Origin: Alphaproteobacteria bacterium
GTDB lineage: Bacteria > Pseudomonadota > Alphaproteobacteria > UBA9219
Assembly: GCA_028690155.1 (NCBI GenBank)
Contig: JAQVBU010000008.1
Location: forward strand, 7,593 to 71,592
Reading direction: 5' to 3'
Length of the DNA stretch: 64,000 nt
Part shown: in pieces, positions 5,614-51,061 of the stretch
How the letters are laid out: each line of letters begins with the position of its first letter
Numbering within the stretch: position 1 is the stretch's first letter
Program-made: the position numbers and the translations under genes
The notes under the pieces: model-generated
The model's database searches: none
What the model was told of the DNA's origin: nothing
What the model saw: only the letters and a program-made list of their open reading frames with translations

Positions 5614-7012
5614 GCGCCATCGCCGGCACGCAGAGCAGCATAACGCAGTCGGCCTCGTCAGGAGACACGCCGATGCGCTTTTTTACCTCGTCTTTGCTCT
5701 CGACGCGCAGCTTTGAGTTTTCCGTCATCTCGTACTTCCTCGTGGACAACTGCGCAATCAAGTCGGCATCGTTCGGCAGGATCAAGTCAACCGCCTTGGG
5801 ATTCCCTTCCTCATCCACGGTTGACAGCATGCTCTTGATTACGCCGAGCATGAACGTCGTGGAATCGTAGTAGTATGCGTGCTTGATGCGTCGCCCGAAC
5901 TGCACGGGCAGAACCTCCATCCACGCAAATCGCTTTTGATTCGCCTTTTTAATCTGCCTTAGGCGGTCCGTCACGCCGCCGCCGACACCGCCATCGTCAA
6001 TGCGGACCATGATGGTGCCCGTATACTTGTACTGGCGTATAAGATCAACGCCGAGCTCTATAATCTTGTCCGCAGTTTTCATCAGGTCTTGCCCGTTGAT
6101 CTTTAGGTGGATCGTAACATTTTCGTTGATCTTATAGGCGATGACTGTCTTATCATCGCCGAAGCGCGCCACATCGCACCCGATGTCGATCCTTATCGGG
6201 CGCTTGAGCGCGAACTGAGTTTGAACGCTTGCCTCAAGCAGCGAAAGTGGGATAAACACATCGTCCTCTTGAAGCGGAAACTCTCCATCTACGCGAACGC
6301 GAATGAAGTTCGAGTGCTTCCCGTATTTCCGCTCCATTGCCGCGATATTCTCCTTGTTAGTGCGCGGACAATCCCGAGACGAAATGTGATGTGACTGATA
6401 CACGCTCTTGTCCCGCGTGTGAGAATCATAAAAGGTCCCTCTGGTTTGCGTCGGGTTGCCGCACATGAGCAATTTGTTGTTTGGCCCTGACAGCGTGCCG
6501 AGCACCGCCTCCATGATCGGCTCCGAAACGCCGGACGCCTCGTCAATGACGAACAGCATATTGTCCTCGTGGAATCCCTGCATGTTCTCCGGCTTTGTCG
6601 CCGTTCGCGCGACCGCAAACCAACGCTTTTCATATCCCGACATATAGACGTATGTTTTCGTCCATTTCAGGATCGCCGAGAGCAGAGGGGACTTGGCGCG
6701 CCACTTCTCGATTTCCGACCAGAGAACGTCGTGCAGTTGCTGGCGTGTCGGCGCCGTACACACGACGCGAGCGTATGGGTAACATGTAAGGAACCACAAT
6801 ATGATAATGGACATGAGCGCCGTCTTGCCAACGCCCTGCCCGCTTCGCACCGTGATCCGATTGTAGTCAGCGACATCCATCATGACGCGCGCCTGGTTCT
6901 CATCGGCGTCAAAGTGTAAAAGTTCGCGCCCGAATGCCACGGGGTCATTTTTATACTTTTTCTGTACGCGCCTGAACGCCTTTACTCTGTCATTCATCAG
7001 GATCGTCTCCAT
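5567..7012 (-). CDS. terL: terminase large subunit
   Basis: Walker A SGQGVGKT and Walker B-like VIDEASGV. C-terminal nuclease-like region. Overlaps the TerS stop. Confidence 0.8.
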   Translation of the reverse strand: METILMNDRVKAFRRVQKKYKNDPVAFGRELLHFDADENQARVMMDVADYNRITVRSGQGVGKTALMSIIILWFLTCYPYARVVCTAPTRQQLHDVLWSEIEKWRAKSPLLSAILKWTKTYVYMSGYEKRWFAVARTATKPENMQGFHEDNMLFVIDEASGVSEPIMEAVLGTLSGPNNKLLMCGNPTQTRGTFYDSHTRDKSVYQSHHISSRDCPRTNKENIAAMERKYGKHSNFIRVRVDGEFPLQEDDVFIPLSLLEASVQTQFALKRPIRIDIGCDVARFGDDKTVIAYKINENVTIHLKINGQDLMKTADKIIELGVDLIRQYKYTGTIMVRIDDGGVGGGVTDRLRQIKKANQKRFAWMEVLPVQFGRRIKHAYYYDSTTFMLGVIKSMLSTVDEEGNPKAVDLILPNDADLIAQLSTRKYEMTENSKLRVESKDEVKKRIGVSPDEADCVMLLCVPAMARGRNGGESADERGNG

Positions 7013-29575: not shown

Positions 29576-29776
29576 TTACTCCTTGTACTGACACCCGCAA
29601 AGCGGGCAGAATTTCGCCGTGGGGAAATTGTGCTTGTTTACCGCATAGGCGGCCTCGCCGCACTTGCACCCGTTCTCTCTGTCGCGCTTTTCCTTCAACG
29701 CTTGCCAAACGAGATCGCAGAACGGCTTGCTTCCGTCGCCGTCATAGAAAACCATCGCCCTTTCAACGTCCTTCAT
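29576..29776 (-). CDS. small zinc-finger protein
   Basis: CKCGEA...CPLCGC. Confidence 0.3.
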   Translation of the reverse strand: MKDVERAMVFYDGDGSKPFCDLVWQALKEKRDRENGCKCGEAAYAVNKHNFPTAKFCPLCGCQYKE

Positions 29777-30246
29777 GCCGACACCCTCCCGTCTTGCTGT
29801 TTGGATCTTTTGGCTGCCCGGTCATACATTACGATGCTTCCGGCGACCGCGACGTTATAGCAATGATCGCCGAGTATTTGAACCACATCTTTGCAGCGCG
29901 CGAGCACCTTCTGGGGGATGCCGTTATCCTCTGCACCGAGAAGGTAAATGCACCGATCCAGATGCCCGTAGCCCTCAAGCGGAATCGAGCGCTCGTCGAG
30001 CTCGACCGCAACAATTGGGCAGCCGCTCGGGATGTGCTCGATGAAGTCATCCCACGTCGGGTAGTTGAAAAGCGGGATGTGCTTCGGTGCTTTTGCGGTA
30101 TCGGAGCATTGATGCGAATACCTCCTACCAACCGTGAAAATGAAACTCGCGCCTAGTATCGAAGCGCTTCTCCAAAGCGTGCCGATGTTCTGCTCGGTTT
30201 TCCCATTGAAAATACCAATCCCGAAGTATCCTCTACCGCTATCCAT
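29773..30246 (-). CDS. SpoU/TrmL-like RNA 2'-O-methyltransferase (SPOUT class)
   Basis: NIGTLWRSASILGA (motif 1), YLLGAEDNGIP (motif 2), NVAVAGSIVMYD (motif 3); about 157 aa like TrmL. Confidence 0.6.
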   Translation of the reverse strand: MDSGRGYFGIGIFNGKTEQNIGTLWRSASILGASFIFTVGRRYSHQCSDTAKAPKHIPLFNYPTWDDFIEHIPSGCPIVAVELDERSIPLEGYGHLDRCIYLLGAEDNGIPQKVLARCKDVVQILGDHCYNVAVAGSIVMYDRAAKRSKQQDGRVSA

Positions 30247-30445
30247 GTGCCTGCCCCCTTTGCATGGCATCCGAATCCGTCTCCGGCGCCCGAACGATGA
30301 TCCCGAGTTCCTCCGCGAGTTTGTACTGGTTAAGCTCCATGAGGCATCGCAGTATGAACTCCGCGCTGCGGCTCATTGGCTTTGTGCCTCCGTGGCTTGA
30401 TGCCAAGCGGTCGATTACGGCTTCGAGCGCAGTCCTGCTAATCAT
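30239..30445 (-). CDS. hypothetical protein
   Basis: 68-aa ORF. Confidence 0.25.
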   Translation of the reverse strand: MISRTALEAVIDRLASSHGGTKPMSRSAEFILRCLMELNQYKLAEELGIIVRAPETDSDAMQRGQAHG

Positions 30446-42578: not shown

Positions 42579-42804
42579 GCCTCCCGCGCTTGGGTTTCCC
42601 TCTTGACACAGCAAAGAGATCGTCGTTGGTATAGCGGAGGATGATTTTAATCCTCATGCTGAGGTTGAGAGATGGCGATTTCGTGCCCCCCTCGATCTGC
42701 GAATAATGACTGCGCGAGATGCCGAGTTGCGAAGCAATCGAGTACTGCGTATACCCGGCATTCGCGCGCATAGTGGATAGTTTCTCTCTCATATAAGCCT
42801 CCAT
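42511..42804 (-). CDS. XRE-family HTH regulator (cro-side of the main switch)
   Basis: AGYTQYSIASQLGISRSHYSQIEGGTKSP. Directly downstream of promoter copy 3. Confidence 0.5.
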   Translation of the reverse strand: MEAYMREKLSTMRANAGYTQYSIASQLGISRSHYSQIEGGTKSPSLNLSMRIKIILRYTNDDLFAVSRGKPKRGRPIRDCQTATEHRYSQASCSRPL

Positions 42805-44890: not shown

Positions 44891-44951
44891 TTCGCGGGCA
44901 GTAGGCGGAACAGCTTTTTCTCAAAAAGCCCTATTTTGAATCAAATAAGTG

Positions 44952-44980
44952 TTGACATAGCCCCGATTTGGGGCTATAAT
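44952..44980 (+). promoter_or_regulatory. promoter-operator cassette copy 4 (plus strand)
   Basis: TTGACAtagccccgatttggggcTATAAT, followed by GGAGGG and ATG at 45007. Confidence 0.6.
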
Positions 44981-45006
44981 GGTCTTGACACGAAGGAGGG
45001 ACGCTG

Positions 45007-45586
45007 GATGGCAGGTTTGGTAATGGCGAACGACGGCCGTATCATCAATGCCCCGGTTTGGGTCTATACGAATGTATCGGCGTCCCAGAATGAGCTCGTC
45101 TACGCATATCATCTGGTGAATCGCCCTCCATCTATCGGAACCCATCCAAAAGATGACATAGGCGTCGTGAGTTATCGCTACCAGACGTACCAGGACACCA
45201 TCGGGCGTTGCGCATGGGGCATGGTGATCTACAACCGCCCTTTGACGCAGCGAGAAGTGGACGAGTACGAGCTTATACCCGACAGCGATACCGATTGTAG
45301 GTACAGGCAGTACGCGATCCTGCGCGCGGCTTTCAAAAAGGCCGGGGGCAGGAAGGTAGCCGAATGGAGCTTCCTGCTCTCGTGCGACGGTCTCGTATGG
45401 TTGTCGTGCTCGGAGACAAAAGCCAAGGAGCAGGCCAACGCGCTCGACCTCAAGGCGACTGAAAGCGGCGATGATCTGACGCGATATTTTGTTCGCAAAG
45501 TAGCGGACGCCTCCGACATCGCCAGAAAGGGCTTTCGGAGGACGTTTACATCGAACCCCATAAAGAGGGCGGCAGGCTGCAGCTGA
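45007..45586 (+). CDS. hypothetical protein, first gene of the rightward operon
   Basis: 193-aa ORF with good RBS just downstream of promoter copy 4; no recognised domain. Confidence 0.4.
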
Positions 45587-45769
45587 TCGCCCAGTGCATA
45601 CGGTGGATCGCCGAGAAAGGTCGATACAGGGGATACTCGTTCGGCAGATTGGAGGTGATTGCGTGCCGCGGCTTTTATGATTTAGCGCGAGCCACAAGGT
45701 AGGCCCGGAAAAAGAAGGCTCGGCCGGGAAGAATCACCGGGGCGCTCTTACGGAAGGGGGTGAGTTCAA

Positions 45770-45958
45770 GTGTGGAGCTACTATGACGTTATTGACTGGT
45801 ATGATCTCCAATATGATGCGTCTTTCAGCGCGAATGGCGCTGATGGCGTAAGGAGCATGGTGGACAACCTCGCCCGCCCGACCAAAGGCAAGAGCGTCGT
45901 ACCCCAAGCAGCGAGAGCACACCGCAAGCGGTTTCACGTCTGTGCTACCGGCATCTAG
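45770..45958 (+). CDS. hypothetical small protein
   Basis: 62-aa ORF. Confidence 0.2.
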   Translation: MWSYYDVIDWYDLQYDASFSANGADGVRSMVDNLARPTKGKSVVPQAARAHRKRFHVCATGI

Positions 45959-46249
45959 GTACGCAAAGCCGCTCGAAAAGTCAATGCCGCCTGAAAGGGA
46001 GCGGAGGCGGCGCAGCAGTTCTCGGGATCATTGAGGGGCTCTGCCGCTCCTGACGCCAGCATGCGTCCACGAGTACCGAGAACACAGGAATACACGTGAA
46101 ACAAAAAGCCATCGCAGGAAGCTCGTACCAGAGTTGAAAATGTGAACCCTGCGAGAACAGGATCACGGCACCGTAAGATCGCGAATGGTACTTCGCGTGA
46201 GGTCACCGAATCCAGCCAGTGCCGGGGAGTAACGGCCTCTCCGGCCTCA

Positions 46250-46325
46250 TGCCGCCGTAGCTCAATTGGCAGAGCGCTGGTCTTCCAAACCGGTTGTTAC
46301 GGGTTCGATCCCCGTCGACGGCTCC
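46250..46325 (+). tRNA. tRNA-Gly (anticodon UCC)
   Basis: Cloverleaf: acceptor GCCGCCG, D-arm GCTC-AATTGGCA-GAGC, anticodon loop CTTCCAA, T-loop TTCGATC, discriminator T, encoded CCA; one A-C mismatch in the acceptor stem. Confidence 0.7.
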
Positions 46326-46423
46326 AAGCCCGAATGGGCTTTTACCAAGGATCATATCGCTTCCCCAGAAAGGAGGTGACTGGTATCTCTGAACAACTTC
46401 CAATCGGCGTTGACCTCGGCGAA

Positions 46424-46687
46424 TACATGGGCATTCTGGCCGAACAACTCGGTCTCGTGGCGCATGAGATCAGAAAATTGTTGTCAAAACTGCGTGAGGA
46501 ACTTTTGGGTTCGATCGACGAGCTTTTGGGAGCGATCTTGGAAGCCGATGAGAGACTTGTGGAAGATGGTCCCCGCAGGCCGCAGTGGAATCCCACGACG
46601 TCCCCGCGCTATTTGCCGCCTGTGAGCGACAAGCGCGAAAGCAATCCGGCGAGAGCGCGGTTCTTCACATGTGCCGGAGGTCAGTAG
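46424..46687 (+). CDS. hypothetical small ORF (doubtful)
   Basis: Internal ATG of a longer ORF whose N-terminus overlaps tRNA-Gly. Confidence 0.2.
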   Translation, partial: YMGILAEQLGLVAHEIRKLLSKLREELLGSIDELLGAILEADERLVEDGPRRPQWNPTTSPRYLPPVSDKRESNPARARFFTCAGGQ

Positions 46688-46699
46688 CGAGGCGGCATG

Positions 46700-47950
46700 G
46701 ATTCCGTCGGGACGAGCGGAGGCGGGGCGGCAAGCGCCCCCAGGATCGACATGCGCCTACCGCGCCGACTGGCTGTAGCAAATATGAATATGATAAGCGA
46801 CCCATAGACATGCAACGCCATCGTATCACAACGCTCTTGCCCGCAAGGGAGGCGAGGAAAGCAAGCGAACGACAAAGCGCAACGGGGAGGTTCCGGTCGA
46901 TCAACGTGTCGAAGCCGGAGTGTACCTACCGGGCAAGAGCGTTCCCCCCACCGACCGAGAAGGGATGATCGGCATGAGGAAGTAGCCAACGGAACCGAGA
47001 TACATTGGAAGCATCAGGCGCGCTCTGTGGGAGCGCGGGGCGCGCCTCCATGCGGCCTTAGCTCGCGGTAGAGCAGATGCAAGCGGACGGTTGCCAAAGA
47101 CGTAAAGGGGCGCAAAAACCTCGCCCCTCCCTCGCCGCCACCGACATCAGGTTTGGTCCAATTCCAAAGGGCCGCACCAGGGCTTTCCGGTTCAGCATCT
47201 CCCCTATTGCCTGGGGAGCGTCCCGGCCAGACCGGGCAACGGAAAACCGGCGTTCTTTGACGCTCTATCATCGAGATCCATTTCTTCCGCGAAGAAACGG
47301 GTGCGGAATGACGCGAACCATGTTTTCGGTTATGAGCGGCGTTCAGCAGCAACCGATGGCAGCCCGGAAAGACGGGCACATATGGGGATGGTAGTCCGAG
47401 AGCTGCTCGACGGCCGGCGCAGGTGCAAATCCTGCGGTCTCCACCAACCAGCCCGCGTGCCGTGCATCCGATAGGCCACCGGAAGCACGATGGGAGCAGC
47501 CGTTCCGAGAGGTGCACGACAAGGACGGAGGCCCAGTGTTCGGGAGTAGTGCGCAACCGCAAGCCCAAGAACGACAGCGGTGACAGCTCGGAAAGACGGC
47601 ACCATGCAGCAGTAACTCAACCGGTAGAGTAACGGCGCAACGCGTCGAGGTGGATGCAGGTTCGATTCCTGTCTGTTGCACAAATACTCCGTGGACACCG
47701 TTATGAATCCGGGATTCGCCCGCGTGAAGCGCAGTTCGATCTGCAAGCGAGATGGTTCGACTCCTGACCGCGCTTGGTGCATATCACGGGCAACGGAACA
47801 GTCGGATGGGTTTTAGGAGGTCCTGAACGAAGCCCCACAAGCCGCACGGCGCTATTGCGGTTGCGACAGTCAATCAAGAGGCGGTTTTCTCTGTCTGGCA
47901 GTCGGGAAAGACCGACACCTTTGTCTCACCGTCGCGAGTGAGTGGATTGA
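46700..47950. ncRNA. ORF-free, GC-rich, structured region with tRNA-like modules (candidate Y-RNA-like or other structured RNA)
   Basis: All six frames carry only short overlapping ORFs. Contains GGTTCGATTCC and GGTTCGACTCC T-loop-like motifs and many stem-forming segments. Confidence 0.4.
47606..47680 (+). ncRNA. tRNA-like element (75 nt) with canonical acceptor, D- and T-arms but a 6-bp/3-nt-loop hairpin in place of the anticodon arm
   Basis: Acceptor GCAGCAG/CTGTTGC (one G-U pair), D-arm ACTC-AACCGGTA-GAGT, hairpin CGGCGC-AAC-GCGTCG, T-arm GCAGG-TTCGATT-CCTGT. Confidence 0.45.
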
Positions 47951-48061
47951 AATGACCCGGATATCGGAAGGCTCGACACCTTCACACAATTGATCGACGC
48001 CAGCAGCAACAAACAATGCATTGCAAAAGCATCAAGAATGCGTCGAGAAAGGGGTATTGGG

Positions 48062-49600
48062 ATGGATAACTTCATGGAGGCGCTGGAAAGACAAGCCTCG
48101 GAGGCCCGGCTTGTGCGGACGGAAAACGGTGCGCTCGGTCACGGAAGCACCGGATCGGCACTGCTTGATCTGAACTTCACCGCTTCTTCCTACAGAGACA
48201 GGGACGATTCTGCCGTCTGGACAGCTTTCAGGCGCGCGTATCGCGAAGACCCTAAGAGCGCGGTCGCATGGCTGTTCTTCTCCCGCGACGCCAGAGGGGG
48301 CATGGGCGAGCGTCGCTTTTTCCGGGTGGTCATGGAGCACATGGCAAGCAGCTACCCCGATGTGGTGGAGGCACTGCTCCCTGTTATCCCCGAGTATGGC
48401 AGATGGGACGATGTGCTTTCGTTGCTCGACACCAGTTGCCGCATGCGAAGCTCGATTGCGAAACTCGTTATGGCACAACTGCAATACGATGAAATCTGCC
48501 TGACCAATGGCAAGCCCGTGTCATTGCTGGCGAAGTGGATGCCCAGTGAAAACGCGACGAGCGAGCCGACGAAGCGCCATGCGCACTTGCTTGCAAATCT
48601 GCTTGGGTACTCCCCGAGACAGTACAGGAAGAAGCTCTCTGCATTGCGCAAATATCTCCGCGTGACCGAGGTCGATATGTCCGCGAACCAATGGGGGGAG
48701 ATTGACTACGCGCGCGTCCCCTCTCGCGCGAACCTCATTTACAAGGATGCGTTCATGAGGCATGACGAGGATCGGCGCGCGGCGTATTTGGAAGCCGTCA
48801 ACAGCGGAGAGGCGAAGATCAATGCCGGCGTGCTTTTCCCGCACGACATTGTTGCTCGGTATGCCGGTTGCGCCTCGCGTTACGAGAGCACCATCGACGG
48901 TGCGCTGGAAGCGCTGTGGCGCGCGCTGCCCAATACTATGACTGGCAATGGAAATGTCCTCGTTGTGCGGGACGGCAGCGGAAGCATGGGTAGCAATATC
49001 GGGAAAACCTCCGTGCGCGCTTTGGATGTTTCGACGGCACTCGCGATCTATTTTGCTGAACGGTGCACCGGAGCGTTCAAGGACAAGTACATCACGTTCT
49101 CGGCATGCCCTGAAATCGTCTCGCTCGTCGGGATGGAAACACTCATGGAAAAGCTCCGCGAATCGTACCGGTATGACGATTGCTCGAACACCAACATTGA
49201 AGCGACATTCGACCTGATCTTGAGCGCGGCGGTAATAAACGGAATGAACCAAGCCGACTTGCCGCGCATCGTGCTGGTAATCTCCGATATGGAGTTCGAT
49301 GGGGCCGTCTATGGCCGGAAAGCCGGCGCGACACTGTTCAGTAATATTGCGGCGCGGTTCGTTCGAGCTGGCTATGCTCTACCGAAGCTGGCGTTCTGGA
49401 ACGTCAACTCCAGAACGGATACAGTACCAATGAAGGAAAATGAGAACGGCGTCGTTCTTGTAAGCGGGTTCTCTCCTGCCGTCGTGAAGATGGTACTTTC
49501 CGGAGAGCTCGACCCCTACATGGCCATGATGAACGTTCTGGAATCCGACAGATACGATATGGTGCGGGAAGCAATCAAGGAGGTGGAGTTCACGGTTTGA
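48062..49600 (+). CDS. DUF2828-like protein with C-terminal vWA domain (Ro60/TROVE-vWA-like architecture)
   Basis: ATG at 48062 after an AGGGG RBS. N-terminal LVRTENGALGHGSTGSALLDLNF...RDARGGMGERRFFR region. MIDAS-type LVVRDGSGSMGS (DxSxS) at the start of the C-terminal domain. Confidence 0.5.
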   Translation: MDNFMEALERQASEARLVRTENGALGHGSTGSALLDLNFTASSYRDRDDSAVWTAFRRAYREDPKSAVAWLFFSRDARGGMGERRFFRVVMEHMASSYPDVVEALLPVIPEYGRWDDVLSLLDTSCRMRSSIAKLVMAQLQYDEICLTNGKPVSLLAKWMPSENATSEPTKRHAHLLANLLGYSPRQYRKKLSALRKYLRVTEVDMSANQWGEIDYARVPSRANLIYKDAFMRHDEDRRAAYLEAVNSGEAKINAGVLFPHDIVARYAGCASRYESTIDGALEALWRALPNTMTGNGNVLVVRDGSGSMGSNIGKTSVRALDVSTALAIYFAERCTGAFKDKYITFSACPEIVSLVGMETLMEKLRESYRYDDCSNTNIEATFDLILSAAVINGMNQADLPRIVLVISDMEFDGAVYGRKAGATLFSNIAARFVRAGYALPKLAFWNVNSRTDTVPMKENENGVVLVSGFSPAVVKMVLSGELDPYMAMMNVLESDRYDMVREAIKEVEFTV

Positions 49601-49739
49601 CCGTTGACTTTGAGGCGCATACAGCAATGTTATCAGCTATTTTGAGATTCCGGCGAGAGCCGGGGCGCCTCGTTCTTGAAGCCCTAACAGCAACCCAAAA
49701 TGATTTTTGACAGATCAAAAACGGGCTTCGTGTGGGAAT

Positions 49740-49856
49740 GGCGGTGTAGCTCAATTGGGAGAGCATCTAAGGTGCTTCGGTGAAGCGCGTACAGCAATCC
49801 CCTATTGGACTGTTAATCCGAGGATGCGGGTTCGATCCCCGCCGCCGCCACTCTCA
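49740..49856 (+). tRNA. tRNA-Asn(GUU)-like gene with a 39-nt hairpin insertion between the D-arm and anticodon stem (possible pseudo-tRNA or intron-bearing)
   Basis: Acceptor GGCGGTG/CGCCGCC, D-arm GCTC-AATTGGGA-GAGC, anticodon arm TTGGA-CTGTTAA-TCCGA, T-arm GCGGG-TTCGATC-CCCGC. Extra GCTTC-GGT-GAAGC hairpin at 49766-49804. Confidence 0.45.
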
Positions 49857-49954
49857 TTTCATTCACCAGATTGGGCGTTGCCGTCCGCAAGGGGATATGA
49901 ACCGAACGATCCCCGGCATCCACGCCGACGAGAATCCACGCAGGAGGTAATGGT

Positions 49955-51061
49955 ATGAAAATCCGAATCAATGCAAACGTGCTAAGGGACGCACTTTCCA
50001 TCGTAACTATGGCCGCATCACCACGTGCCGCCATGCCGATTTTAGAGGGAATCCTCATAATGGCGGGCGATGACAGCATCGTGCTTACCGGGTCGGACTC
50101 CATGTTGACCGTTTCAGTGAAAGTCAAAGGGGATGTCTTTGATGCTGGCGCCGGCGTGGTTCGAGGCAAGATGTTTAGCGACATCGTCAAGAAGATGCCG
50201 GACGGAGAGATCATCGTTTCATCAGATAAAAACGCTCGTTTTACCGTGAGCGGCGGCCAGGCCAAGTTCAACATTGCCGGGTCTGACGCGAGCCAGTATC
50301 CGCGACGCGATTCCGAAAATATCTTCAATTCTGTTTCCGTTCCGAATTCAGTGCTTTACGACATGATCGAAAAAACCGAACAATGCGTTGCAAATGATGC
50401 GTCACGGCCCGTGCTGACTGGCGGATGCCTTGAATCAATCAACGGGCAGGCGAACATGACGGCGCTGGACGGCTTCCGGCTTTCAACCAGGCAGTGTTTG
50501 TGCACTCCATCTGCCAAGGATATAGAGGTCATCATTCCGCACAAGTCGCTTGCAATGATGAAGAAACTGCTGAACCCATCGGAGGAAACGCCGATCACAT
50601 TGTCTTTTACAAATACCGCAATGCTCGTTGACATCGGCGGCACGGAACTGCAATCGACCTTGATCAACGGTCCCTATATCAAGTGGCGCACGTTGATTCC
50701 GAAGGATTTCAGTACGCGCGTGGCCGTAAACTCCGATGCGTTTCGCGATGCCATAGAGCGCGCAGCGCTCATTGCGCGTGGCGGTGAAAATCGTCTTGTG
50801 AAACTTTCGATTGGAGAAAACACGCTGTCGATCATGTCGCGCACGAGCGAAGATGAAGTGGTTGAGCACATTGAGGTTGACCAGTTCGGACCCGATCTCG
50901 ATATATCCTTCAACGTTGCGTATTTGAGCGATATGACCCGCGTTATCAAGACCAAGCGCACCATGCTGAATTTCACAAACAGCACATCTCCCTGCGTCGT
51001 AGAGCCGGAGGGCGATAAAGACTGCCTTTGGCTTATCCTGCCCGTCAGAACCACCGCATAG
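49955..51061 (+). CDS. dnaN: DNA polymerase III beta subunit (sliding clamp)
   Basis: 368 aa; N-terminal pattern MKIRINANVLRDALSIVTMAASPRAAMPILEGILI...LTGSDS typical of DnaN. Confidence 0.7.
   Translation: MKIRINANVLRDALSIVTMAASPRAAMPILEGILIMAGDDSIVLTGSDSMLTVSVKVKGDVFDAGAGVVRGKMFSDIVKKMPDGEIIVSSDKNARFTVSGGQAKFNIAGSDASQYPRRDSENIFNSVSVPNSVLYDMIEKTEQCVANDASRPVLTGGCLESINGQANMTALDGFRLSTRQCLCTPSAKDIEVIIPHKSLAMMKKLLNPSEETPITLSFTNTAMLVDIGGTELQSTLINGPYIKWRTLIPKDFSTRVAVNSDAFRDAIERAALIARGGENRLVKLSIGENTLSIMSRTSEDEVVEHIEVDQFGPDLDISFNVAYLSDMTRVIKTKRTMLNFTNSTSPCVVEPEGDKDCLWLILPVRTTA

Follow-up and report, generated by a model that had tools for sequence, protein, structure and literature searches.

The stretch of DNA analysed here, 64,000 nucleotides of contig JAQVBU010000008.1 from an Alphaproteobacteria bacterium, is called the window below, and coordinates count from its first letter. 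On its plus strand, positions 48062–49600 encode a 512-residue protein with a DUF2828 region and a DUF7788/von Willebrand factor A (vWA) domain. The gene is followed by three small RNAs that share a short single-stranded motif, ACAGCAA, and is preceded by a 1.37-kb non-coding stretch on the same strand that contains several tRNA-like or otherwise structured modules (46688–48061). We propose, at roughly even odds (a probability of about 0.5), that the locus encodes a phage ribonucleoprotein (RNP) resembling Ro60 with its Y RNAs, that its RNAs form a new class, and that the variable part of these RNAs, their cargo, engages host proteins that recognise tRNAs.

By sequence, the protein falls into the DUF2828/DUF7788 phage family with scores above the curated Pfam thresholds (DUF2828, PF11443: 122.3 bits, E = 3e-35, cut-off 29; DUF7788, PF25043: 138.4 bits, E = 2.8e-40, cut-off 27.1), and residues 1–499 match PHROG 850, 'RNA-binding protein' (E = 3e-135). 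Its MIDAS (metal ion-dependent adhesion site) is complete, with D304, S306, S308, T377 and D409 invariant among 34 homologues, as are many arginine residues, which bears out the 512-residue DUF2828/vWA protein with MIDAS that a preliminary description of this DNA had recognised. An AlphaFold model was obtained with a predicted local distance difference test score (pLDDT) of 86.6 and a predicted template modelling score (pTM) of 0.87, and the top nine Foldseek matches of this model are Ro60 proteins (E = 8e-9 to 1e-5, TM-score up to 0.61), which are also its sole full-length structural neighbours. The predicted fold is a ring of helical repeats closed by the C-terminal vWA domain, as in Ro60. 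The sequence itself gave no match to Pfam TROVE (PF05731) at E ≤ 0.1, and a comparison of all PDB chains with phmmer and with a profile of the 34 sequences gave no Ro60 or other match at E ≤ 10. The Ro60 architecture claimed in the preliminary description is therefore found in the modelled fold and not in the sequence, and the predicted kinship to Ro60/TROVE is one of fold level only. Scans with Pfam and PADLOC detected no nuclease or ligase motif in the protein. Homologues with up to 41% identity occur in at least 711 cultured phage records, among them Felix O1, Listeria phages of the P100 type and Staphylococcus phages, about 1.4% of phage records carrying the gene; those of mycobacteriophages are already annotated as 'Ro-like RNA binding protein', and ORF86 of phage Felix O1, 36.5% identical, lies 5′ of the tRNA cluster, in the position that gp130 has in the Felix-type phage Bas63. 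Close relatives are scarce, as the best identity in a search of 5.8 billion proteins, with the source contig set aside, was 57%, an IMG/VR search for close kin of the window returned one relative at 44%, scanning metagenomes with the beta clamp revealed no close kin of the window, and blastn of the window against phages matched the tRNA-Gly alone. The deposited annotation of the gene ('DUF2828 family protein', 376 residues) is N-terminally short and otherwise identical; the 512-residue form starting at 48062 (MDNFMEAL...) is backed by homologues.

The three RNAs 3′ of the gene lie on its strand, and each carries an invariant, single-stranded ACAGCAA two nucleotides after a 7-bp helix, a combination that we call the handle. 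Unit 1 (62 nt, 49611–49672) is closed by (T)GAGGCGC/GCGCCTC(G), continues with AT and ACAGCAA (49621–49627) and encloses a GNRA hairpin, CCGGC-GAGA-GCCGG, and unit 2 (54 nt, 49677–49730) is closed by (T)GAAGCCC/GGGCTTC(G), continues with TA and ACAGCAA (49687–49693) and likewise has an inner hairpin. In the predicted folds of both (z = −2.98 for unit 1, −2.60 for unit 2) the stem is closed and the motif unpaired. Unit 1 is syntenic in three homologous loci, L002, L005 and L007, where the stem reads CAGGCGC/GCGCCTG, a compensatory change, and unit 2 differs from the CAGACCC/GGGTCTG of L002 and L005 by three compensatory pair changes. The third RNA (49740–49850), which begins 140 nt past the stop codon, has a tRNA body with an Asn-type loop, CTGTTAA, into the anticodon arm of which the hairpin GTGCTTC-GGT-GAAGCGC, GT and ACAGCAA (49791–49797) are inserted. 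Rfam alone, not ARAGORN, detects it (tRNA model, 45.7 bits, gathering score 29), with a 52-nt insertion in the match and about 38–52 extra nucleotides in the anticodon arm, and the nature of the insertion was understood by aligning it with five similar 'long tRNA' matches from the closest homologous loci. The preliminary description had seen this RNA correctly as tRNA-Asn-like with an insertion and had treated it as a mere bracket of the module, which understates its part, as it carries the handle itself; units 1 and 2 and a further tRNA-like at 47383–47446 had been missed.

ACAGCAA occurs seven times in the window, about as often as expected by chance. Since three of the five plus-strand copies fall within 177 nt directly after the stop codon, for which we estimate from the window density a chance probability of the order of 1e-6, coincidence is excluded for this downstream cluster. 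A candidate variant unit, TCGACGC-CA-GCAGCAA...GCGTCGA, was found in a structure scan at 47994–48046 of the plus strand (z = −1.94), 16 nt before the start codon, and exact-motif units sit at the equivalent position in L005 (about 5913–5985), L007 (motif at 5960) and Vibrio phage nt-1 (motif at 2973). The window copy is uncertain because motifs with one mismatch are common by chance; a one-mismatch scan of the window was uninformative, with 24–28 background matches per strand, and we hence claim handle units for the exact motif alone.

The handle recurs beside the homologous gene in other phages, there as a helix of 6–8 bp, 1–3 nt and the single-stranded ACAGCAA. In 80 further IMG/VR phage loci, fetched via the protein at 47–55% identity, the copies of ACAGCAA 5′ of the gene number 391 on its own strand and 13 on the other, a thirty-fold bias with a density that climbs toward the start codon; 3′ of the gene the counts are 68 and 14, and 76 of the 80 loci have at least one nearby copy. 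Of the 390 distinct sites, a perfect closing helix of at least 7 bp that starts 1–3 nt before the motif is present at 211 (median unit length 62 nt) and a hairpin of at least 6 bp that ends at the motif at a further 77, together 74%, as opposed to 23% for permuted control 7-mers (closing helix at 18 and hairpin at 10 of 122 sites). The association was also recovered from the RNA side, as a pattern search for the RNA only returned at least 120 IMG/VR fragments, 77 of which (64% of 120) carry DUF2828 within the piece fetched. Across phage lineages the genomic linkage of RNA and gene is tight, polar and reciprocal, and hundreds of phages show the pairing.

It could be argued that ACAGCAA and its helix act in cis on the expression or processing of phage tRNA clusters, for instance as an RNase site or a promoter or terminator element, and have no specific relation to the DUF2828 protein, which would share the accessory region with them by coincidence. 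The units are indeed interleaved with tRNA genes, some unit-bearing fragments and a giant-virus contig described below show no DUF2828 nearby, and the conserved (C/U)AG...CUG(U) ends of the units could be processing sites. The ordinary tRNAs of the 80 loci, however, are evenly spread (178 upstream, 146 downstream) at a greater distance from the gene, whereas the motif is skewed (391 versus 68) and nearer, so that the motif tracks the gene and not the density of tRNAs. It also lies inside stable predicted structures, even in the anticodon arm of tRNA-like bodies, where processing would destroy the RNA, and the 64% of RNA-first fragments with the gene compares with the about 1.4% of phage records that carry it. 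We thus regard a mere cis-acting signal as improbable.

Cultured phages carry the same arrangement. Exact-motif units lie beside the gene in nine of the ten that we sampled, namely Felix O1, Mycobacterium phage Nicholasp3, Listeria phage LP-064, Vibrio phage nt-1, Bacillus phage PJN02, Enterococcus phage PEf771, Campylobacter phage F374, Staphylococcus phage S-CoN_Ph12 and Fusobacterium phage FNU3. The tenth, Synechococcus phage B23, has a long tRNA-like with the variant ACUGCAA (83.5 bits; L094 4363–4472, record positions 220408–220517), which lies 390 nt 3′ of the DUF2828 gene and is labelled 'tRNA-OTHER / tRNA-Undet-???' in GenBank. The handle is thus kept across phages of Proteobacteria, Firmicutes, Actinobacteria, Fusobacteria and Cyanobacteria. 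Features with such 'tRNA-Undet' labels in other phage records may belong to the same long tRNA-like family, and many such features and unannotated gaps in phage tRNA clusters now receive a name and a model. Rfam scans of the window and 40 loci, with gathering and E-value thresholds, revealed no dedicated family for the units.

The long tRNA-likes were captured in a covariance model, R1. We define the family by acceptor, D and T arms, by NN-ACAGCAA and, ahead of it, a covarying hairpin, both placed between D arm and anticodon region, and by a position on the gene strand close to the DUF2828 gene. The RNA at 49740–49850 belongs to this family, as it reaches 81.9 bits (E = 9e-15) under R1, where ordinary tRNAs stay at or below 52 bits; about 165 members reach at least 53 bits, all on the gene strand. 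In the alignment of 25 long tRNA-likes from which R1 was built, 97.2% of the cells are paired, compared with 41–50% when the partners are slid, the covariation score is 0.747 versus 0.09–0.15 in the slid controls, and compensatory changes affect each of the five pairs in the inserted hairpin. The same scaffold is found with GUU, UUU or GCU loops.

Such an RNA might also be a genuine tRNA gene with a small intron-like insertion that the DUF2828 protein and a ligase excise to yield tRNA-Asn, tRNA-Lys and others. In members of type A, positions 27–28 pair with 42–43 and 29–31 with 39–41, so that removal of the insertion leaves a perfect anticodon stem, and the window contains no other tRNA-Asn. 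Set against this are type-B members without a usable anticodon loop, closed-stem units that share the handle and have no exons, and a protein devoid of nuclease or ligase motifs. Moreover, the member with the Ser-type GCU loop cannot be a real tRNA-Ser because its variable arm is short, and L002 has a normal tRNA-Asn alongside its long Asn-like RNA. From these last two observations we conclude that the long tRNA-likes are mimics and not interrupted tRNA genes, an origin that we consider very unlikely.

In the closed-stem units the constant handle encloses a variable interior, which often consists of a 5-bp stem and a 7-nt CUNNNAA loop, a mimic of an anticodon stem-loop. Hairpins that strictly resemble anticodon stem-loops occur in 35% of the structured units and in 3.8% of control segments, part of the 35% being T arms and not anticodon mimics, and the commonest loops, CTTGAAA, CTTTTAA, CTGTTAA and CTGCTAA, correspond to UGA, UUU, GUU and GCU anticodons. 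Enterococcus phage PEf771 carries four tandem units (CAUAAAGAAnnn-N-ACAGC(A/G)A...nnnUUCUUG) 5′ of the gene, two of which enclose a permuted domain of T arm, acceptor and D arm that the Rfam YrlA model (RF02553) matches with E = 1.7e-9 and 1.4e-5; the better match, at 47.8 bits, is significant and below the gathering score of 69. One mycobacteriophage unit has the same permuted YrlA topology. Within the window, positions 46100–50000 gave no match to YrlA or another Y RNA in Rfam at E ≤ 5.

These results change the picture of the partner RNAs. The preliminary description had sought them, as Y RNAs of the YrlA type, in the tRNA-like at 47606–47680 and a T-loop-like module near 47750, both 5′ of the gene. 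Small tRNA-like non-coding RNAs do consistently flank the genes of relatives, some of them fitting the YrlA model (E = 1.7e-9). In the window itself, the Rfam search found no YrlA or Y RNA, the two upstream elements have no handle, and the best-supported partners are the three handle RNAs downstream. In part, then, the earlier proposal is supported: it was right in kind and wrong on which RNAs matter.

Ro60–Y RNA particles are a classic RNP that is still poorly understood. YrlA RNAs are encoded next to canonical Ro60 (Rsr/TROVE) genes (Chen et al. 2014, PMC4201824), and the Ro60 of Thermus phage phiLo, encoded with Yrl1/2, assembles with host PNPase, for which a RYPER-like decay machine has been proposed (PMC12135203). 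Like these systems, the DUF2828 locus combines a helical-repeat ring closed by a vWA/MIDAS domain with adjoining small non-coding RNAs, in which a terminal stem with a short conserved, putatively protein-binding motif is joined to a tRNA-like domain, and DUF2828-linked RNAs of the Enterococcus and Mycobacterium phages share the permuted topology of YrlA. Unlike Ro60, the DUF2828 protein has no detectable TROVE sequence homology, and its RNA element is a single-stranded ACAGCAA after the 5′ strand instead of the bulged GNCGAA/CGAA helix of Y RNAs. The DUF2828 RNAs further differ from YrlA in that they come in arrays of 3–10 whose cargo varies, with bare anticodon stem-loops and tRNA bodies that are not permuted among it, and the RNAs of the window reach no Y RNA model.

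Ro60-type RNA surveillance or decay is accordingly the main rival to the proposed engagement of tRNA-recognising proteins. The RNAs would then, in the manner of Y RNAs, tether the ring to an exoribonuclease of the host, e.g. PNPase, in a RYPER-like machine that degrades or remodels structured RNAs of host or phage or tRNAs that are misfolded and damaged, and the tRNA-like parts would serve processing or enzyme docking and not as decoys. This would be in keeping with the Ro60 fold, with the phiLo particle and its host PNPase (PMC12135203), with the YrlA-type domains that adjoin DUF2828 genes, and with an RtcB ligase gene 1.3 kb from the gene in Listeria phage LP-064 and a Thg1-like gene in L005. 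A PNPase tether would, however, need no diversity of anticodon-type loops on a constant scaffold, the handle is unlike the Ro60-binding motif of Y RNAs, and no exonuclease is encoded near the module within the window. Hence, we find a decay machine of this kind doubtful.

Functional data come from a relative. The PhageMaP preprint describes gp130 of the Felix-type phage Bas63 as a Ro60-like protein encoded directly 5′ of a tRNA stretch, reports that its deletion sensitises Bas63 to the Ppl defence system, which is proposed to target DNA, and speculates that some of the nearby tRNA genes are Y RNAs (10.1101/2024.10.10.617714). It defines no RNA partner, motif or structure for gp130 (10.1101/2024.10.10.617714). 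By way of the Felix O1 homologue, gp130 would fall into the same family as the window protein, and the Ppl-countering protein would gain a candidate cofactor. The preliminary description had called the system undescribed in this form, which is true only in part. What is already known is the Ro-like annotation of phage DUF2828 proteins, the position of Ro60 genes beside YrlA and the Y RNA guess of 2024 for the surroundings of gp130; the handle, the two RNA architectures, the arrays and the anticodon-mimic cargo were not found in Rfam 15 or the searchable literature. A second Ro60-fold family, unrelated in sequence, thereby gains a concrete candidate RNA partner with a simple signature, a helix followed by ACAGCAA.

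The closed-stem units have one further likeness, to the Class I RNAs of Dictyostelium (RF01414). In these RNAs, which are 42–65 nt long, the ends are joined by a 6-bp stem that is conserved in structure and not in sequence; a single-stranded ...ACAGCAA comes right after its 5′ strand, the interior varies, and the 3′ end reads CUG(U) (Kjellin et al. 2021, PMC7919456). With 62 and 54 nt, a short closing stem and the unpaired motif after the 5′ strand, units 1 and 2 share this architecture. Class I is also the only Rfam family that repeatedly matches the units, over their full length in five phages at 19.7–24.9 bits, all below the gathering score of 41.5; window unit 2 is one of these (Dicty_Class_I_RNA, 19.7 bits). 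The scores thus do not place the units in that family, and of the 11-nt Class I motif, CCUUACAGCAA, the phage units share only the seven bases ACAGCAA. The Class I RNAs differ also in their eukaryotic host, in having their own DUSE promoter and in their direct binder, Rnp1A, a protein with RNA recognition motifs. The uncharacterised DDB_G0281243 is one of four proteins that were pulled down with DdR-21, a Class I RNA; literature searches on this protein and on a DUF2828 protein in Dictyostelium yielded no result. In Pfam, DUF2828 is described as a family with eukaryotic and viral members.

Units of this kind also occur in a giant virus (nucleocytoplasmic large DNA virus, NCLDV). The contig (IMGVR_UViG_GVMAG-M-3300017963-53_000001 and IMGVR_UViG_3300028840_000909; our loci L101, L220 and L221) is genuinely viral, as it has major capsid, Rpb5 and Rpb3/11 fusion genes, and L221 11087–12300 carries five tandem closed-stem units, CCAAAGACAC-NN-ACAGCAA...GUGUCUUG, interleaved with eukaryote-type tRNA-Leu genes and intron-bearing tRNAs. 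A group I intron lies on the same contig at L220 2252–2565. One might speculate that DUF2828 proteins and the RNAs with stem and ACAGCAA belong together in a single ancient RNP class of phages, giant viruses and eukaryotes, with the Dictyostelium Class I RNAs as its cellular members and the phage arrays as interchangeable anticodon-loop decoys for tRNA-targeting immune nucleases. The Class I RNAs would then be Y-RNA-like partners of a Ro60-fold DUF2828 protein, for which DDB_G0281243 is one candidate. We think so wide a class unlikely. The giant-virus occurrence and the likeness to Dictyostelium make the role of the Class I RNAs directly testable.

For the phages, the reading that we favour is an RNP akin to Ro60 and its Y RNAs. 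The DUF2828/vWA protein, modelled as a Ro60-type ring, would bind the helix and single-stranded ACAGCAA that phage-encoded small RNAs have in common. The protein fold, the RNA structures with their covariation and the genomic linkage are what the analysis shows; that the protein binds the handle RNAs we infer and hold to be quite probable. The remainder of each RNA would be a variable cargo that imitates tRNA, be it as a whole body, a bare anticodon stem-loop, a T arm or a permuted YrlA-type domain, and, like Y RNAs, would tether the ring to host proteins that recognise tRNAs or act as a decoy. As targets, which we likewise infer, tRNA-directed defence nucleases and enzymes of RNA decay or repair would be most likely, with the outcome that phage translation is protected and host defence countered.

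Phage tRNAs are known to evade or compensate for anticodon nucleases, as in the cases of the T5 tRNA-Lys and PARIS and of T4 and PrrC, and these are functional decoding tRNAs. The handle RNAs differ from them in that they would carry a protein handle, often lack parts of a tRNA and would work as decoys or tethers. Anticodon loops of the Lys, Asn, Ser and Thr type are common nuclease targets, and tRNA-shaped handle RNAs in tRNA clusters carry such loops. Since anticodon-type loops vary on a constant scaffold, the site lies among phage tRNAs and anti-defence genes, and Bas63 gp130 counters Ppl, we favour a counter-defence role through tRNA mimicry, as a plausible proposal that stops short of being probable. 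The modular build of the RNAs, in which exchangeable mimics of tRNAs or anticodons are joined to a handle that stays the same, suggests that they serve the tRNA arms race as a programmable decoy or tether.

Several points weigh against this interpretation. The whole case is one of genomic association and predicted structure. Ppl, as a system proposed to target DNA, is not obviously a good fit with a tRNA decoy. DUF2828 genes always lie in tRNA-rich regions, so that the RNA–gene linkage could in part be indirect; in 43 of the 120 RNA-first fragments the piece fetched shows no DUF2828, and the giant-virus contig with its five units has none within the 18 kb fetched. In the window, units 1 and 2, which no tool had found beforehand, are plain hairpins without an anticodon mimic, the upstream tRNA-likes at 47383–47446 and 47606–47680 are without the ACAGCAA handle, and the lineage has no relatives close enough for a covariation analysis of the 1.37-kb upstream region.

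This upstream region, 46688–48061, is non-coding, as the codon-position periodicity of GC is absent, notwithstanding spurious open reading frames (ORFs) of up to 184 codons on both strands. The spread of GC between codon positions is at most 0.10 from about 46550 to 48050, compared with 0.18–0.33 inside real genes, for which the values at the first, second and third position (GC1/GC2/GC3) are about 0.57/0.43/0.68 in the window. The claim that 46700–47950 holds no convincing ORF was therefore correct. The GC content of the stretch is 0.60–0.63, with an excess of A on the plus strand, and besides tRNA no Rfam family matches it at E ≤ 5.

It contains at least two tRNA-likes on the plus strand, each behind a leader hairpin with a GAAAGA loop and about 5 nt that end in AT or CAT. 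The first leader, GCCCG[GAAAGA]CGGGC (47362–47377), ends 5 nt before a minimal tRNA-like (47383–47446) with a 7-bp acceptor stem, one central hairpin, a T arm (GCAGG-TGCAAAT-CCTGC) and an encoded CCA; this RNA is a candidate whose support comes mainly from the conserved leader. The second leader (47586–47600), with a weaker stem followed by ACCAT and an exact CGGAAAGACG at 47589, precedes the 75-nt tRNA-like at 47606–47680, which the preliminary description had found and which Rfam confirms as tRNA (45.8 bits, gathering score 29) and ARAGORN reads as Val-AAC. Its acceptor, D and T arms are normal, and its anticodon arm is, as described there, abnormal: C33 takes the place of U33, and the stem has either 4 bp and an A.A mismatch or 6 bp and a triloop; under R1 it scores 34.5 bits, in the range of ordinary tRNAs. 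The window contains exact CGGAAAGACG in these two leaders and nowhere else. A third hexaloop hairpin, GTCGG[GAAAGA]CCGAC (47901–47916, plus strand), came up as a terminator-like site in a terminator scan. Leaders with G[GAAAGA]C 5–8 nt before the 5′ end of a tRNA-like, followed by ..CAT, are shared with a subset of DUF2828 loci (L028 1650–1680 and 2780–2800, among others), where they precede long tRNA-likes, and in blastn the leader at 47586–47600 matches that of L028 2777–2811 and others. By sequence comparison, this leader is the sole homology-based evidence that ties the upstream region to the system; a processing signal and an unusual promoter are possibilities for its role.

The two upstream tRNA-likes fold no better than shuffled sequences (z = −0.43 for 47383–47446 and −0.98 for 47606–47680), as would be expected if the elements of the locus were decaying pseudo-tRNAs and chance motifs without function. 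Such a view is hardly credible for the family as a whole, given its covariation, the thirty-fold strand bias and a handle kept across phages of five bacterial phyla; a single recent clone is excluded by the 47–55% protein identities and different hosts of the IMG/VR loci. As to the T-loop-like module that had been placed at about 47750, GGTTCGACTCC is present at 47754–47764 and has no T stem around it, and a better T-arm-like hairpin, GCAG-TTCGAT-CTGC, lies at 47731–47744. A possible degenerate tRNA-like at 47052–47139, seen by eye and reported by no tool, combines a GCGGC acceptor with a canonical D arm (TAGCTCGCGGTAGAGCA), has a GGGGCG...CGCCCC hairpin where the T arm would be and is preceded by ..CCAT.

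The genes that flank the module are of phage type and include those for a portal protein, Mu-F, an integrase, an SbcCD-like protein, two DNA methyltransferases, a sliding clamp and a DarA-C-like protein. The RNA-rich accessory region opens with an ordinary tRNA-Gly(TCC) on the plus strand (46251–46326; ARAGORN, Rfam tRNA 64.1 bits) that encodes its CCA and had been noted as a tRNA-Gly. It is followed by a small plus-strand ORF (46376–46687; 86–103 residues depending on the start codon), which is probably a real gene by its GC1/GC2/GC3 of 0.625/0.442/0.606 and gave no match in Pfam, PHROG, PADLOC or NCBIfam. Just 5′ of the RNA region, beside the integrase, 44936–45586 encodes a protein with a DarA_C domain (defence against restriction; Pfam, E = 3.8e-14), consistent with an anti-defence neighbourhood. 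The SpoU methyltransferase that had been counted to the same system is real (Pfam, E = 5.8e-18); it lies on the minus strand at 29776–30270, and its link to the module 18 kb away is unsupported. PADLOC defence-system models gave no match at E ≤ 0.01 and NCBIfam gave none, and a scan of 45500–50200 found no sigma-70-like promoter and terminators no more numerous than in shuffles. We also weighed AcrIIIA1, a protein–RNA anti-CRISPR with tRNA fragments as ligands, as a relative and rejected it, as it is a 10-kDa protein without similarity. The sole further plus-strand ACAGCAA of the window with an adjacent closing helix (CTCTTGA/TTGAGAG, 72 nt, 42600–42671) lies 5.5 kb before the DUF2828 gene, near the integrase, and is probably a chance occurrence.

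Apart from tRNA, the Rfam scans of the window and 40 loci returned sporadic ROOL, HEARO and twister matches. Listeria phage LP-064 has a ROOL RNA (L091 1465–2016) that narrowly misses the gathering score (87.4 bits, E = 3e-16); it is located about 1 kb before the DUF2828 gene among tRNAs and handle units, and the RtcB ligase gene of this phage is situated 3′ of the DUF2828 gene. A HEARO RNA directly follows the DUF2828 gene in L012 (4585–4803; 132 bits), and L005 has a twister-P1-like ribozyme at 2160–2225 (55 bits, below the gathering score). In the closest relatives of the window, a reverse transcriptase gene (RVT_1) is found 2–3 kb 5′ of the DUF2828 gene (L002 2630–3757, L007 1863–2993, L008 760–2124), where it sits with ThiF and has genes of NAD salvage nearby (NAMPT, phosphoribosyl pyrophosphate synthetase and nicotinamidase), a region that looks like an anti-defence or accessory island.

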